64,000 nt of DNA from Escherichia coli (GCF_003018235.1 NZ_CP027437.1); one strand, 5' to 3'; shown: positions 18,500 to 52,226, counted from the stretch's first letter. Notes: generated from the letters alone by a model not told the origin. A program made the numbers and translations.

Positions 18500-18501
<2 letters not shown>
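15652..18501 (+). CDS. rcsC: hybrid sensor kinase RcsC
   Basis: 949-aa ORF with HisKA H-box (SHELRTPL), HATPase domain and C-terminal receiver domain (ILVVDDHPINRRLL). Confidence 0.9.
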
Positions 18502-18700
<199 letters not shown>

Positions 18701-22351: not shown

Positions 22352-22444
22352 AAAAAAAACCGGATGCGAGGCATCCGGTTGAAATAGGGGTAAACAGACA
22401 TTCAGAAATGAATGACGGTAATAAATAAAGTTAATGATGATAGC
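22352..22444 (-). ncRNA. micF: MicF antisense small RNA
   Basis: Minus strand reads GCTATCATCATTAACTTTATTTATTACCGTCATTCATTTCTGAATGTCTGTTTACCCCTATTTCAACCGGATGCCTCGCATCCGGTTTTTTTT, the MicF sequence with its terminator, divergent from ompC. Confidence 0.85.
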
Positions 22445-23906
<1,462 letters not shown>

Positions 23907-47313: not shown

Positions 47314-47392
47314 GGGATTTTTGCACGAGAGTAGTTTAATTGAGTATGTAACTACATGATTTAAAATAATTTGTCTAATTCAACTTTTAAAC

Positions 47393-47417
47393 CGTATAAC
47401 CAAACGTATAACTAAAA
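47393..47417. repeat. CGTATAAC(TAAA) repeat pair at the yejO-proximal end of the island
   Basis: cCGTATAACcaaaCGTATAACTAAAA; the same motif recurs four times at 57463-57519 near the integrase. Confidence 0.6.
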
Positions 47418-47620
47418 TGATTTGCTGAAAAAGTGTACAATTTAAAGACAGATTTTCCCGGGGGTTATAAAACTGCGAAAATTTCGTAGTTATCCCGATA
47501 CGGGGATCACCATATCGGGATTGGATACCTGGCTTTTTTTCCGGTTAACTCTTAATCATCTGCGTGATCATAATGATGATTCAGCCAGCGCAATTTTGCG
47601 TTATCGGGAATATCAGCAAG

Positions 47621-47902
47621 TTACCGCCGTAACCGCTCCGGCTTCTTCCAGTGGTAGGTAATTTTTTCTTTCTCCCGATACATCTCCACGCGGCGCTTGT
47701 AGGCCAGCATTTCAAGAACGCGGATCCGTATGTCGCGCATATCCACATCATTAAGCTGGATACCATCACGGCGCATCACCTCAGCAACCACACACGCATA
47801 ATTTTCGGCGGTCACGCAGTCCGGCTGCGTAGCCTGTTCGTCAGCCTGCTGGCTGATTCCGGCAACTCGGCGGATTAATCGCAGTAGTTCGGCTTCTGTC
47901 AT
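47621..47902 (-). CDS. hypothetical protein, 93 aa, island-borne
   Basis: ORF from the supplied track, downstream (minus sense) of conserved repeat copy 1; no family recognised. Confidence 0.4.
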   Translation of the reverse strand: MTEAELLRLIRRVAGISQQADEQATQPDCVTAENYACVVAEVMRRDGIQLNDVDMRDIRIRVLEMLAYKRRVEMYREKEKITYHWKKPERLRR

Positions 47903-48063
47903 TGTGCCCCCTCGCGCTGGTTAAGAAAACAAGCTCAGATTTTTTGTAAAGAATCTGTCACGCTAAAAGATGTCGAACAAAAAACAATCACCTTCATCAT
48001 CTTTTTTACATAAAAACAATTAAAAACAATAATTTACATACATGATGATGATGGCGATAAAAT

Positions 48064-48140
48064 CATAAAAATGCGCTTTTTTCCGCGCCGACCCGCCCCG
48101 TGGACAGGCCCACCCCACCAGGAGGACCCGCAAAAAAGGC
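48064..48140. repeat. conserved GC-rich element of about 65 bp, copy 1 (abuts the capsid-gene terminator)
   Basis: TGCGCTTTTTTCCGCGCCGACCCGCCCCGTGGAcaggCCCACCccACCAGGAGGACCCgCAAAAAAG, about 85% identical to 50604-50690 by eye. Confidence 0.6.
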
Positions 48141-48169
48141 GGCATATTTGCCGCCCTGTAAACTGTGTA

Positions 48170-50065
48170 TCAGCCGGAAGCCGTACCGCTCGATTTGACC
48201 ATGCCGCGATAGTCCAGCGCGGCCACACCGGCATCAATACGAACCTTCCAGGCGACACCGTCAACGATGAAGCCTTCCTGCTGTTCAAGGTAAGGCTCGT
48301 CATTACCATCAAGATAAGCCACCTCGATTGTGTCCGTTCCCTGTGCTGAAAGCATGTACCATTGATTCACACTAACATCATCCAGACGAGGATCGACAAT
48401 AATATCCAGTAGCTTGTGATACGGGTTAAATATGCCGCTGTTTTTATCGGCCCCGAAAGGTGCGGTTGAATTAATCATTTGCAACGCGCGATCTTCCAGT
48501 GCTGCCGGAACTAACAGGAATTTAGGTGCAATGTTCAGCACCTCGCCGTTTTTATCTTTCTGTATGCGCATAGCGTGACGTGCTGCACTAAGCCCCGGCG
48601 TCGTCATGCCAAGATCGATAAGGTTGTTGTGTTTTTTATCAAACAAGGCCACACCATCAGACAGCTTGCCGTTTCCTGTAAGTACCAGATTAACCAGATT
48701 GCCAACCGTTCTGGCTGCTGCACGCCCCATAGCCATTGGCACGGTAGACAACTGATCAAGGTCATCATTGATTATCGCCTGGCGGGTAATACTGAAAATA
48801 TTCCCGTATGTAGCCAGCGCGATTGGCTCACCGCGATCGCTGGTGGTGATGTATTTATATTCTGCCCCTTCCGGCACTTTGTTTAATGTTGAAAAACCAT
48901 TCAGGCCAACGCGGCGGGCTTCACGGAAGTTTGACAGAGAACCTTTTTTAGTCCACTGGCGGAATGTTTCGCCGCTGTGCTCCCAGCCTGCCAGCACTGA
49001 TTTTTCAGCGCCACCAGCCAGGATGTAAGTAAAATCGCTGCTGCTGTGAGTGAATGCCGCATTAACAATCTGCGAACGCGTGCTGTAGCTGCCTGTGCTT
49101 ATGCCACGATGGGTTAATGATGCCTGTGCCATATCGAAAAGGCTCATCATGGCGTAAGGATTGCCGCGTTCGGCCTGTTCGTGACCAAGACGTGCGTTAA
49201 GCCCCTGACGCATGGCATCGCCGGTTATGTTGCCGTTATCCGTATACGCGTAGTAAAGATTTGCGGGGGTGTTTTTGTTGGTGGGTGTCGATTCCTTGCC
49301 CATAGCCAATAAAAGGCGTTCGCGCGCATCCTCAACGCTACAACCTGCGTCTGCCAGGCAGTTAATAGCCAGGTCGTTATATTTCCCGTTGAACGTGCCA
49401 AACAATTCGCGAATGCCGTTTAGTCGTTCCTGTTCGCCGCTGGCTTTGTTCTGGTTGATCATGTTTTTGATACTTTCCGGCATATTTGAAAAATCTCCGA
49501 TTCGTTTTGATTCAATTCTGGCCATTGCTGTAATCGCGGGTATAACCTCATCTGCGAAGCCGTTAGCCTTACACTCATTGCCATCCATCCAGGTTTCCGC
49601 CTCCATCATGGCGGTGATTTCCTGTTTGCTTTTTCCCGTTCTTCCGGCGTAGGTTTCCGCCATCGTGTCGCCCAGCTTGTCCATCAGGTCAGCAAAGCGG
49701 CGAACGTCGCCCGACACGCCAGAAGTAACACCACGGGGGGCATGTATCATCATCATTGCGTTAGCGGGCATCACGATGTGATCGCCACACATGGCAATAA
49801 ACGAGGCCATAGAAGCCGCTATGCCTTCAATGTGTACGATTTTTTTCGCCGGATGATTTTTCAGGGCGTTATAGATAGCCAGCCCCTGAAAGATGTCGCC
49901 GCCTGGTGAATGGATACGCAAATGGATTTCAGACACGTCACCACACGCGCTTATCTGGTCGGTTAATGTTGACGCCTGTACACCGTAACCGCCTATTTCG
50001 TCATAAATGCGAACGTGAAGGGCGTCGGCTTTTGCCTGTATGCTGTACCAGGATTTCATAGCCAT
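48170..50065 (-). CDS. phage prohead protease (ClpP/S49-like) fused to HK97-fold major capsid protein, 631 aa
   Basis: N-terminal part resembles ClpP-type head maturation proteases (HSPGGDIFQGLAIYNAL ... ASMASFIAMCGD); C-terminal part resembles HK97-family major capsid proteins. Assignment by sequence resemblance from memory. Confidence 0.65.
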   Translation of the reverse strand: MAMKSWYSIQAKADALHVRIYDEIGGYGVQASTLTDQISACGDVSEIHLRIHSPGGDIFQGLAIYNALKNHPAKKIVHIEGIAASMASFIAMCGDHIVMPANAMMMIHAPRGVTSGVSGDVRRFADLMDKLGDTMAETYAGRTGKSKQEITAMMEAETWMDGNECKANGFADEVIPAITAMARIESKRIGDFSNMPESIKNMINQNKASGEQERLNGIRELFGTFNGKYNDLAINCLADAGCSVEDARERLLLAMGKESTPTNKNTPANLYYAYTDNGNITGDAMRQGLNARLGHEQAERGNPYAMMSLFDMAQASLTHRGISTGSYSTRSQIVNAAFTHSSSDFTYILAGGAEKSVLAGWEHSGETFRQWTKKGSLSNFREARRVGLNGFSTLNKVPEGAEYKYITTSDRGEPIALATYGNIFSITRQAIINDDLDQLSTVPMAMGRAAARTVGNLVNLVLTGNGKLSDGVALFDKKHNNLIDLGMTTPGLSAARHAMRIQKDKNGEVLNIAPKFLLVPAALEDRALQMINSTAPFGADKNSGIFNPYHKLLDIIVDPRLDDVSVNQWYMLSAQGTDTIEVAYLDGNDEPYLEQQEGFIVDGVAWKVRIDAGVAALDYRGMVKSSGTASG

Positions 50066-50250
50066 GCCCCTAACGTGTGCCCATACCAGTACTCTACCGC
50101 GCTGCGTGCAATTTGCCCTTTGGTCGGTACTGGCATTCCTGGGTGATTTTCCCTTATGAACTGCTGATAGCGTTCAATCTTCTCCATCGTTCCGGCGTCT
50201 ATGTGCACTGTTGCGCTTTTATCCGGTTTTCTGGTGTTGTTCTCTGGCAT
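50056..50250 (-). CDS. hypothetical small protein (64 aa from the internal ATG with GGAGG RBS), upstream of and overlapping the capsid gene
   Basis: ORF 50056..50283; ACGGAGG sits 8 nt upstream of the ATG at 50250. Confidence 0.4.
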   Translation of the reverse strand: MPENNTRKPDKSATVHIDAGTMEKIERYQQFIRENHPGMPVPTKGQIARSAVEYWYGHTLGAWL

Positions 50251-50444
50251 AAATCCGCCTCCGTTTTGATTAACGGGCATCATTATTGATCGATAAAAGT
50301 AATAGATAAATCATTTTCTACCTAAAAATCAGATTATGATTTTTCTGATTATTTCGAGAAAAGCAAATCATTTGACGCATTATTGCTATTTTGGCAATAT
50401 TAAGTCTCATTCATTCCGGTAGTAGAAGTTCGTTTGTCGTACTA

Positions 50445-50481
50445 AAGCGCCTCCGGTAGCACCATCGGGGGCGCTTTTTTT
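50445..50481 (+). terminator. orphan plus-strand rho-independent terminator inside the island
   Basis: GCGCCTCCGG-tagcaccat-CGGGGGCGC followed by T7; there is no plus-strand ORF upstream of it. Confidence 0.45.
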
Positions 50482-50603
50482 GTGCCTGTTTTTTTTGTAA
50501 ATATTTTCGGGAATGTTCCAGTGGTGAACAAAAAACAACCATAATCGACACTGAAATTTTTATCAGCCAAATATATCAATAAGTTATGTTAGTGGTGATG
50601 GTG

Positions 50604-50690
50604 CCATAAAAATCAAAAAATGCGCCTTTTTCCGCGCCGACCCGCCCCGTGGATGCCCCCACCAACCAGGAGGACCCACAAAAAAGCCGG
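50604..50690. repeat. conserved GC-rich element of about 65 bp, copy 2 (abuts the terminator of the int2/PerC-like unit)
   Basis: TGCGCCTTTTTCCGCGCCGACCCGCCCCGTGGAtgccCCCACCaaCCAGGAGGACCCaCAAAAAAG; the adjacent hairpin differs between the two copies but the block is conserved. Confidence 0.6.
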
Positions 50691-50708
50691 ATTGCTCCGG
50701 CTGTGTGC

Positions 50709-50984
50709 TCACTTCTGCGGGTAGTTGCGCCATACTGCTTTACCAATACCAGCTATCCCCATTTGTTTTTCAGTGCGATTAACTGACCTTTTCAGAGCGC
50801 CTAAATCATCCGGCGGCTCCGGTGGCCTCTGTGCCTTCCTGGAACATTCCTGCCGTCGCATTGCCACCTGTGCGCGTTCCTTGTCTGTCTCCACCAGCAT
50901 CATCACTTCACCCCATCGCGCCGCCGCCCTCCTGTAAAATCCTTTCGCCTCGAGTTCCTCCGCTATACGGTCATGTACCATCAT
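50709..50984 (-). CDS. small regulatory protein, possibly PerC family, 91 aa
   Basis: N-terminal IAEELEAKGFYRRAAARW resembles the PerC/Pch motif as I recall it; overlaps the int2 stop by 4 bp. Family call is tentative. Confidence 0.4.
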   Translation of the reverse strand: MMVHDRIAEELEAKGFYRRAAARWGEVMMLVETDKERAQVAMRRQECSRKAQRPPEPPDDLGALKRSVNRTEKQMGIAGIGKAVWRNYPQK

Positions 50985-51994
50985 TCACCACCTCCCGCAG
51001 ATGGCGATAAGCTGGCTTTGCCTCCAAGTGGATTAAACCTTATCGCCTCTGTCAGAAAATCCGGCGCAAAATGCGCGTAAACCATTGTCTGTTGTATGCT
51101 CGCGTGCCCCAGTATCCTTTGCAGTGTGATTATATTCCCCCCGTTCATCATGAAATGTGTCGCGAATGTGTGCCGTAATACGTGGGTGGCCTGGCCTTTT
51201 GGTAAGTCCGGTTTTACTGACTTGATGACCTCCCTGAACTCCAGATAATCCACATCAAACAACTGTCCCTTTTTACCTCTCGTTACAAGTTCCAGAACGT
51301 CATCAGACACCGGAACAGCTCGCGCCCGTCCGTTCTTCGTCTCCGTAAACATTACCTTGTTACTGACTATATTTTCCCGTCGTAGCGTCGATGACTCCCC
51401 ATAACGCGCCCCCGTCGAAAGACACAAAACAGCCAGCGCGAGACAGTCGCCTTTGGCAATATTCAGTAAATGATTAACCTCATCATCACCAAGAAAACTC
51501 ATAGCCTTGTTTGGTGCTTTCAGCTTGCGTAATCCACTCAAAGGGTTTTCACCGTGATACATACCGCATTCGATTAGCCCCCTGAACATTCCTGATATAA
51601 CCGACAAATCACGGTTAACAGTCAACGGACTAAGGCCGCATCCCAGCTTGTCGGCTCTGTATTCCATGAGCATTGCGCGGGTTATGTTGCAGATTCGTGG
51701 ATCCCCCATTTCACGGATAACCTTCATCATGCGCATAAACGATTGTTCGCCGTATTCCTCCGATCTTCCGATAAACTCCATCCATAAGTTAGCCAGATCA
51801 GATAACAGGCGAATATCTGCGGCGCGTGACTCCCAGGGCTTATTATGACAATGAAGCAGTATGTATTTTTCGTAATCACGGGCTTTTGTCTGCGAGGGAA
51901 AAATCTTTCTTATCCGTCGCCCGTAAGCGCCATTTGGCCTTACGTCAACCAGCCAGCGACCATCCTCACACTTCCTTATCGCCATGCTCCACAC
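50981..51994 (-). CDS. tyrosine site-specific integrase/recombinase, 337 aa (second integrase in the island)
   Basis: C-terminal catalytic region with HVLRHTFATHFMMNGGNIITLQRILGHASIQQTMVYAHF (R..HxxR..Y signature); size is typical of P2-type integrases. Confidence 0.8.
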   Translation of the reverse strand: MWSMAIRKCEDGRWLVDVRPNGAYGRRIRKIFPSQTKARDYEKYILLHCHNKPWESRAADIRLLSDLANLWMEFIGRSEEYGEQSFMRMMKVIREMGDPRICNITRAMLMEYRADKLGCGLSPLTVNRDLSVISGMFRGLIECGMYHGENPLSGLRKLKAPNKAMSFLGDDEVNHLLNIAKGDCLALAVLCLSTGARYGESSTLRRENIVSNKVMFTETKNGRARAVPVSDDVLELVTRGKKGQLFDVDYLEFREVIKSVKPDLPKGQATHVLRHTFATHFMMNGGNIITLQRILGHASIQQTMVYAHFAPDFLTEAIRFNPLGGKASLSPSAGGGE

Positions 51995-52226
51995 CCTTAA
52001 CGTTGATGGTTGTTACCTGTTCCGCTTCGGCTATCTCCCGTTCGGTCAGCGTGGCAAAGTTTGCCGCCGCTGTGGTCATGAATGCGCTTATCAGTTCGGG
52101 ATGTGCTTTCGCGTATCCTTCTCCCGTGTTGCGGTCTATCGTTCTGATTGCCACCTTTAAGGCGTGCTCTGTCATGTCTAATGCGCGATATTTTGGCGCT
52201 GCCTTATCTCTGGTTTTTCTGGTCAT
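51966..52226 (-). CDS. hypothetical small protein, 86 aa
   Basis: ORF between the replication ATPase and int2, overlapping the int2 start; no family recognised. Confidence 0.35.
   Translation of the reverse strand: MTRKTRDKAAPKYRALDMTEHALKVAIRTIDRNTGEGYAKAHPELISAFMTTAAANFATLTEREIAEAEQVTTINVKGVEHGDKEV

Follow-up and report, generated by a model that had tools for sequence, protein, structure and literature searches.

Satellites that carry phage-type cohesive-end (cos) packaging sites are a known kind of element, and an Escherichia coli phage-inducible chromosomal island (PICI) with two such sites has already been described. That island, EcCICFT073, has two cos sites resembling the cosQ and cosN parts of lambda and phi80; either of them makes a plasmid transducible when cloned, and deletion of both abolishes transfer (Fillol-Salom et al. 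2018, PMC6092414). Its cosB differs from that of the phage, and a heterocomplex of RppA and the phage small terminase subunit (TerS) recognizes the cosB of cos1 (2019, PMC6739421). Further afield, SaPIbov5 is reported to be a satellite without terminase (PMC5052747, PMC8569155) that carries the helper cos together with a homologue of the helper major capsid protein (Ccm), and SaPIbov4 has two putative cos sites, although the sequences, the host and the helper type (HNH-dependent cos phages) are unrelated to those considered here. Here we analyzed a GC-rich element that occurs twice, as copy 1 and copy 2, in a 64,000-nt stretch of an E. coli chromosome (GCF_003018235.1, NZ_CP027437.1; hereafter the window, with coordinates counted from its first letter).

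We consider it likely that both copies are complete cos sites of the lambda type, used for helper-mediated packaging of the small island in which they lie. The arrangement is distinct from that of EcCICFT073: there is no Rpp, the two sites are direct repeats around a capsid gene, and their cosB parts belong to two phage-type classes. This extends the published mechanism of the EcCICFT073 cos sites and is not a new mechanism. It turns an unexplained repeat into a precise annotation, namely the signals by which a phage satellite beside ompC/micF in commensal and pathogenic E. coli would be packaged; its matching helpers include Shiga-toxin (Stx) phages.

A duplicated element brackets the capsid gene

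A sequence-only reading of the window had reported a conserved GC-rich element of about 65 bp, duplicated, lying directly after a terminator and flanking exactly the capsid unit. The duplication was borne out. A repeat search of the window paired 48054-48114 with 50603-50663 (61 nt, 84% identity) and, in a register shifted by one base, 48109-48142 with 50657-50690 (34 nt, 85% identity), and a local blastn comparison of the two copies returned a single 116-nt alignment (81% identity, E=7e-25). At the heart of the element is a 19-nt core on the minus strand, ACGGGGCGGGTCGGCGCGG, of which the window holds exactly two occurrences (48083-48101 and 50632-50650), against 0.03 matches expected in shuffled sequences even when up to 3 mismatches are allowed.

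The GC-rich character also stood (78-81% G+C in the core against 49% for the island), while the length was underestimated: weaker similarity between the copies runs for another ~130 nt toward lower coordinates, into what we describe below as cosB (e.g., GAACAAAAAACAAYCA at 47975 and 50526), which gives a full repeated unit of ~200-230 bp around a well-conserved core of ~90 bp. The interval originally given for copy 2, 50604-50690, is in the right place and takes in 6 nt of the terminator stem. On the minus strand, a hairpin with a T-run does precede each copy, as had been noted.

The copies are direct repeats 2,549 bp apart, with only a 75-amino-acid (aa) open reading frame (ORF) and a protease/capsid fusion gene between them, so that the minus-strand order is copy 2, the 75-aa ORF, the protease/major capsid protein fusion and copy 1. 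The bracket around the capsid unit is thus exact, and it is kept in 22 related islands of two diverged families. In the genome of strain SCU-111, which is 99.8% identical to the window over 3.6 kb around the element, the element has matches in 3 places.

The element aligns with the cos region of lambdoid phages

To place the element, we compared copy 2 with phage genomes by BLAST, which gave matches in the lambdoid phages 1720a-02, CP-1639, VT1-Sakai, several Stx2 phages, mEp460 and others. In every annotated case (mEp460, 1720a-02, VT1-Sakai, vB_EcoS-606R10) the matching stretch has the lysis gene Rz on one side and the genes for the small and large terminase subunits on the other, and is 130-215 nt upstream of terS. 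The mEp460 record is linearized at the terS start codon, with the match 126-190 nt before it; nu1 of lambda begins at bp 191, counted from the cohesive end. Read on the minus strand, the copies also align with the junction of the lambda ends, TTTACGGGTCCTTTCCGGTGATCCGACAGGTTACG/GGGCGGCGACCTCGCGG (right end/left end, the slash marking the cut), for which copy 1 has TTTGCGGGTCCTCCTGGTGGGGTGGGCCTGTCCACG/GGGCGGGTCGGCGCGG. GGGTCCT and ACG/GGGCGG are the same in both copies and in lambda, with matching spacing. The heptamer is cosQ, a 7-bp signal for termination of packaging that is strongly conserved among lambda-like phages (PMC4669245); it lies 30 nt before the right end in lambda and 23-24 nt before the predicted nick in copies 1 and 2. 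Feiss and colleagues reported that positions 7-12 of cosN vary among lambda-like phages, and the conserved parts are those matched here (PMC4669245). Because the element aligns with the lambda junction and sits in phages where the cos of lambda sits, we read it as a cos packaging site.

One phage record is itself cut close to the predicted position: mEp460_4F5 (LR595868) is linearized within the element, ending in ...GGTGGCCTG and starting with CCACGGGGCGGG..., 4 nt from the homologous nick. This was the closest case; no record with ends exactly at the predicted nick was found among the phage records, those of mEp460 and Ayreon being linearized at terS.

The predicted order on the minus strand is the same in each copy, namely terminator, cosQ, cosN and a cosB of ~120 bp with putative TerS-binding elements R3, R2 and R1. 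The features of the two sites are as follows.

50505..50703, minus strand: predicted cos site copy 2, made up of the PerC terminator, cosQ, cosN and a 1720a-02-like cosB (alignment with the lambda cos junction and phage cos regions)
50685..50702, minus strand: intrinsic terminator hairpin of PerC, with its T-run at 50679-50684, directly upstream of cosQ (terminator scan)
50671..50677, minus strand: cosQ-like GGGTCCT of copy 2, identical to the lambda heptamer
50632..50650, minus strand: cosN-like site of copy 2, ACG/GGGCGGGTCGG(C)/GCGG, predicted top-strand nick 50648/50647
50588..50603, minus strand: putative R3 (TerS-binding element) of the copy 2 cosB, bp 45-60 from the predicted left end (by eye)
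50574..50586, plus strand: exact IHF consensus WATCAANNNNTTR of copy 2, between putative R3 and R2, I1-like and placed as I1 is in the lambda cosB
50538..50553, minus strand: putative R2 (inverted) of the copy 2 cosB, bp 95-110 (motif comparison by eye)
50515..50529, minus strand: putative R1 (direct) of the copy 2 cosB, bp 119-133 (motif comparison by eye)
48138..48155, minus strand: hairpin and T-run after the capsid gene, before copy 1
47925..48155, minus strand: predicted cos site copy 1, made up of the capsid-gene terminator, cosQ, cosN and a VT1-Sakai-like cosB (alignment)
48123..48129, minus strand: cosQ-like GGGTCCT of copy 1, identical to lambda
48083..48101, minus strand: cosN-like site of copy 1, identical to the copy 2 cosN, predicted nick 48099/48098
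47965..48058, minus strand: predicted cosB of copy 1, with R3 at 48044-48058, R2 (inverted) at 47987-48001 and R1 at 47965-47977

In copy 1, R3 and R2 were recovered by the repeat search as an inverted pair of 15 nt, 87% complementary with a 42-nt spacer, and R1 is a third related element. The R3, R2 and R1 of copy 2 went undetected by the repeat search at seed 6 and are a by-eye reading joined to the IHF match, one of 6 exact matches to the consensus in the window; the putative R2 and R1 motifs of this copy are conserved in 1720a-02 and mEp460. The putative R3 elements fall at bp 41-60 from the predicted end over both copies (bp 41-55 in copy 1), compared with bp 50-65 in lambda and bp 48-60 in N15 (PMC9026076). 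The hairpin ahead of copy 2 also follows PerC in EcCICFT073.

Taken against the lambda-like cos sites (lambda, 21, phi80, N15, Gifsy-1), the likeness thus covers an identical cosQ GGGTCCT, a CGCGG on the right, a cosB in which R3 is joined by an IHF site, R2 (inverted) and R1 (direct), and, in the phage homologues, a position past the lysis genes and ~200 bp upstream of terS. There are also differences from lambda: the right half of the island cosN is not that of lambda, ACG and CGCGG are separated by 11 nt and not by 12, the R sequences are unrelated to those of lambda, the cognate TerS is Gifsy-2-like and only ~20% identical to Nu1, and the sites are found in a satellite instead of a phage, and in two copies.

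The two copies carry different phage-type cosB classes

The cores of copies 1 and 2 are 89% identical, whereas their cosB parts are only 66% identical. Pairwise comparison puts the cosB of copy 1 at 85% identity to that of VT1-Sakai, and its BLAST matches are VT1-Sakai and Stx2 phages (82% over 152 nt). In copy 2, the cosB shares 86.6% identity with that of 1720a-02 over 118 nt and also matches CP-1639 at 86%. The TerS proteins of 1720a-02 and VT1-Sakai share 91% identity over the C-terminal 98 residues and 55% over the N-terminal ~60, the DNA-binding part. This recalls the pattern of packaging specificity in lambda and phage 21, which likewise share cosQ and cosN, have different cosB and encode TerS proteins whose differences fall mainly in the DNA-binding N-terminal domain; unlike in that pair, both specificities would here lie on one small replicon, and specificity is read from sequence classes.

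To follow the classes in a wider sample, we scanned IMG/VR with the pattern GGGTCCTCCYGGT-N(8-22)-ACGGGGCGG, which returned 120 loci. Single-copy loci numbered 94, and most of their sites are followed ~200 nt on by a TerS gene, which is the phage context; counted by site, 81 of 144 have a TerS gene directly after and no capsid gene upstream. Two or more copies were found at 24 loci, most of them contigs of ~10 kb with direct repeats ~2,536 bp apart around a protease/capsid gene. Clustering of cosB over 148 sites, drawn from IMG/VR and the reference phages, gave five main classes, with copy 1 in cluster A and copy 2 in cluster B.

Two island families emerged. In the first, the capsid protein is 92% identical to that of the window and is followed by the 93-aa gene, with class B upstream and class A downstream in all 12 islands. 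The second has class D upstream and class C downstream in all 10; with a capsid protein at only 63% identity to that of the window, it also encodes a TerS homologue of its own (~55% identity with the TerS of 1720a-02), starting ~200 nt past the second cos. Islands of this second family (L033, L039, L054, L057, L088, L118, L135 and others) are ~10 kb long, with the same bracket of cos, small ORF, protease/capsid gene and cos. Each cosB class seen in islands is also present in phage contexts, and across 81 extracted TerS proteins the cosB class maps one-to-one onto the cluster of the TerS N-terminus. Since the two-class design recurs in a second island family with a TerS of its own, it suggests a selected architecture rather than an accident.

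The host island and its relation to EcCICFT073

The window is E. coli chromosome, with tRNA-Pro at 57653-57726, MicF, naRNA4 and the L25 leader present. In the RefSeq annotation of SCU-111 the element falls in a small island between a yejO remnant and tRNA-Pro, with all genes on the window minus strand. The gene order is integrase, helix-turn-helix (HTH) regulator, Icd-like gene, DUF4222, RepA-family helicase, a second 'phage integrase' and a PerC-family regulator, after which come copy 2, the small ORF, the ClpP-like prohead protease/major capsid fusion, copy 1 and the 93-aa ORF. The features of the island are listed below.

47332..57664, minus strand: host element, an EcCICFT073-like PICI of ~10.3 kb at tRNA-Pro
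47323-47331 and 57656-57664: attachment (att) repeat GCACGAGAG, 9 bp, the second copy at the 3' end of the tRNA, bounding the ~10.3 kb
56190-57449, minus strand: int (NCBIfam NF007246)
55478-55684, minus strand: AlpA, the HTH regulator (Pfam PF05930, E=5.5e-8)
52428-53828, minus strand: RepA helicase (RefSeq annotation)
50981-51994, minus strand: second integrase (RefSeq annotation; PHROG 1)
50709-50984, minus strand: PerC (RefSeq annotation)
50056..50283, minus strand: 75-aa ORF (PHROG 4934) upstream of the capsid gene and 365 nt past the copy 2 nick
48170..50065, minus strand: ClpP-like prohead protease/major capsid fusion (NF045540, 881 bits; PHROG 133)
47621..47902, minus strand: 93-aa ORF, starting 197 nt after the copy 1 nick

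Comparison with PHROGs placed head-maturation protease/capsid, integrase and primase/helicase families among the island genes, and the island has no terminase, portal or tail genes. The 75-aa ORF gave no informative family in the PHROG, NCBIfam and other family scans. Just downstream of the RepA-helicase gene, at 52238-52429, we found iteron-like repeats of CCTCACTTTTACTCCTCACTTTTT, three copies at 83-85 nt spacing together with inverted copies, which by comparison with described PICIs are probably the replication origin of the island. The architecture is that of a Gram-negative PICI, an assignment based on the length of ~10 kb at tRNA-Pro, the integrase at the end, AlpA, the helicase with its iterons, the unidirectional genes and a gene order like that of CFT073.

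The backbone is shared with EcCICFT073: both have int, AlpA, the Icd-like gene, DUF4222, a gene for replication, PerC and a capsid gene, and the product of the last gene there is 87% identical to the 93-aa protein. In each island the late region holds two cos sites whose cosQ and cosN resemble those of helpers, and there are no terminase genes. The late modules themselves differ. That of EcCICFT073 pairs a lambda E-like capsid gene with a decoration gene, compared with the protease/capsid fusion of the window island; its cosN is lambda's own GGGCGGCGACCT, which the cosN of the window island is not; its cos1 lies directly before rppA and its cos2, inverted, after rppA, in contrast to direct repeats that flank the capsid gene; and its PICI-specific cosB needs Rpp-TerS, unlike the phage-type cosB, of two classes, in the window island. 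We had expected the same element after PerC in EcCICFT073, where only the terminator was present, the cos sites being elsewhere and inverted. The two islands share sequence at two junctions, a stretch of 29 identical nt at the PerC terminator and one of 22 where the 93-aa gene starts.

A tblastn search of the window with RppA detected no Rpp homologue (best E=1.6); the CFT073 RppA is itself easily recognized, matching RppC in PDB 6hlk at E=5e-31. The 93-aa gene was considered as a possible Rpp and rejected: its product has no match in Pfam, NCBIfam or PDB, and it is the orthologue of a separate CFT073 gene. Its start, 197 nt past the copy 1 nick, is at the distance at which terS stands in the phages and in the second island family.

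Phages with these cos classes carry, 4.5 kb downstream of cos, a protease/capsid fusion ~51% identical to that of the island. Given this relationship and the different module in EcCICFT073, the capsid/cos module looks phage-derived and exchangeable. EcCICFT073 offers a parallel, since its lambda E-like capsid gene matches its lambda-like helpers as the capsid gene of the window island matches its own phage type.

A proposed model for packaging by two types of helper

By homology with lambda and EcCICFT073, induction of a lambdoid helper prophage would lead to excision and replication of the island. The helper TerS would then bind R3, R2 and R1 of cosB, with bending by IHF, and the large terminase subunit (TerL) would nick cosN; DNA would be translocated in the direction from cosN to cosB, toward lower window coordinates, into proheads. 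Packaging would end at a later cos, where cosQ, cosN and I2 are needed and no particular cosB is (PMC4669245). With neither Rpp nor a terminase or TerS of its own, the island must rely on a helper-type cosB that the TerS of the helper recognizes.

In lambda-like phages, initiation is specific for cosB and TerS and termination is not (PMC4669245). As the two copies have identical cosN and cosB of two phage classes, we infer that the pair may permit packaging by helpers of two specificities. It is quite possible, though we put it forward tentatively, that copy 1 serves a TerS of the VT1-Sakai/Stx type and copy 2 one of the 1720a-02 type. More tentatively still, the two sites may both be competent for initiation and so hedge across two classes of lambdoid helper without Rpp or a terminase of the island's own. 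Either site could also act as an additional, cosB-independent termination point for packaging begun at the other, and, cosN being identical in the two, ends cut at one copy would be compatible with ends cut at the other. The lengths permitted in a concatemer would then be n x 10,333 bp, or such a length plus 2,549 or 7,784 bp; as a matter of arithmetic only, these include 41.3, 43.9, 38.8 and 49.1 kb, to be set beside helper genomes of 44.5-47.3 kb. Should the two sites serve two helper specificities, they would show how satellites that lack Rpp widen their helper range and would help to predict which prophages mobilize which islands.

Weighing the alternatives

Several points count against two working cos sites with distinct specificities. 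Cleavage, packaging and the identity of the helper are, for this island, all inferred. In the IMG/VR sample the conservation of the searched motifs follows from the construction of the search; that of the contexts and the cosB classes does not. Identity over the C-terminus of TerS tracks the cosB class too (0.79 vs 0.51), so the association of TerS with cosB is partly co-inheritance within lineages. ACG and CGCGG are 11 nt apart in both window copies and 10-11 nt apart in most sites of classes A and B, as against 12 nt in lambda and in sites of classes C, D and E; owing to this deviation the overhang may be 11 or 12 nt long, and the length of the cohesive ends may differ between classes A and B and the other phage groups. 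The upstream cos copy has AGGTACT, a two-base change, where cosQ is elsewhere invariably GGGTCCT, in 9 of the 12 islands of the first family, and the same variant stands in the upstream copy of L013 (JNEC-KY177) and L015 (88-3493), whereas copy 2 of the window has the canonical heptamer; in the variant islands the upstream copy may initiate packaging without terminating it, or may be under weaker selection. Finally, deletion of cos2 alone in EcCICFT073 did not lower transfer and even raised it, so that a second cos is possibly dispensable or costly (PMC6092414), and only cos1 of that island responds to RppA (PMC6739421). The cosQ variant and the two EcCICFT073 results would also suit an arrangement in which a single copy works as cos and the other, linked to the capsid module, is a neutral or mildly harmful by-product of helper recombination or duplication. 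We regard this as unlikely for the window island, both of whose copies have an intact cosQ, the identical cosN and a complete cosB of the R3-I1-R2-R1 type. A decaying relic is not expected to retain the full cosB of a live phage class, and the two-site bracket, with two cosB classes that both occur in phages, has been kept in two families whose capsid proteins are only 63% identical.

A functional role other than packaging is less probable in each form that we considered. PICIs typically interfere with packaging of the helper (PMC6739421), the island has no Rpp, which makes another route of interference plausible, and replicated island DNA would offer many helper-type cosB copies; one copy could therefore be a decoy that titrates or misdirects the helper terminase and lowers helper yield. 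Such a decoy would need neither cosQ nor a cosN identical to that of its partner, and the same sequences suffice for productive packaging, which leaves this an improbable explanation. We also think it improbable that the repeats are mainly borders of an exchangeable capsid cassette, supplying homology for recombination with helpers or other islands. The sequence-only reading had suggested a cassette-like acquisition, and part of that idea stands: EcCICFT073 and the window island share PerC and the 93-aa gene, entirely different capsid/cos modules fill the whole interval from the PerC terminator to the 93-aa gene, and the island capsid gene is homologous to a helper-type capsid gene. The sequence shared at the junctions, however, is that of the PerC terminator and of the start of the 93-aa gene and not that of the repeats, EcCICFT073 has no cos after PerC, and recombination potential leaves the conservation of the cosQ, cosN and cosB sub-sites unexplained, although such a role could coexist with packaging. 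The same reading had proposed shared regulation of late-type units, and the position of the element, right after terminators and upstream of two transcription units, would fit a transcribed regulatory RNA or a transcription-control site such as an antitermination signal or late promoter; the minus-strand RNA of copy 2 also folds somewhat better than shuffled sequences (z = -2.3). Yet the two copies fold differently, with z = -1.5 for the minus strand of copy 1 and about -0.5 for the plus strands, and the invariant blocks correspond to the DNA sub-sites of lambda cos that proteins recognize. Rfam gave no match on either copy, at gathering thresholds over the whole window or at E<=10 over 47900-50800, a consensus fold (RNAalifold) of 93 distinct homologous cores contained only two short hairpins, and a promoter scan found no promoter-like site within the element. 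With no Rfam match, inconsistent folds, weak z-scores and trivial consensus hairpins, we dropped the RNA hypothesis. A regulatory role for an element homologous to lambdoid-phage cos appears very improbable, and packaging by the helper is the reading that we retain.

Other features of the island and its surroundings

The second tyrosine integrase (50981-51994, 337 aa) is directly upstream of PerC, in a position that an SSB gene or a small ORF occupies in related islands, and the version with this integrase was found at >=99% in 3 of 1,462 matching E. coli records. A close relative of the island, in E. coli 2014C-3097 (L014; NZ_CP027449, 4531801-4538191), adjoins a truncated gene annotated 'terminase gpA endonuclease subunit'; this island appears to be inserted in a prophage late gene, which is the helper-embedded PICI configuration of PMC10111431. 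Beyond the island, two naRNA4 elements, which are REP-derived, and the MicF small RNA beside ompC (18501-18691, 22352-22445) are ordinary features of the E. coli chromosome.

Between the copy 2 cosB and the 75-aa ORF, the plus strand carries at 50372-50485 a strong intrinsic terminator (50444-50477, a 14-bp stem with a T-run, z = -2.8) that is antisense to the island genes, preceded by a promoter-like TTGACG-18-AATATT at 50372-50401. The 50444-50477 hairpin has no Rfam match above threshold; its stem is conserved in the related islands L013 and L015, with a different loop. Judged from these signals, the promoter-like site and terminator could give rise to an antisense or small RNA of ~75 nt opposite the leader of the capsid operon.

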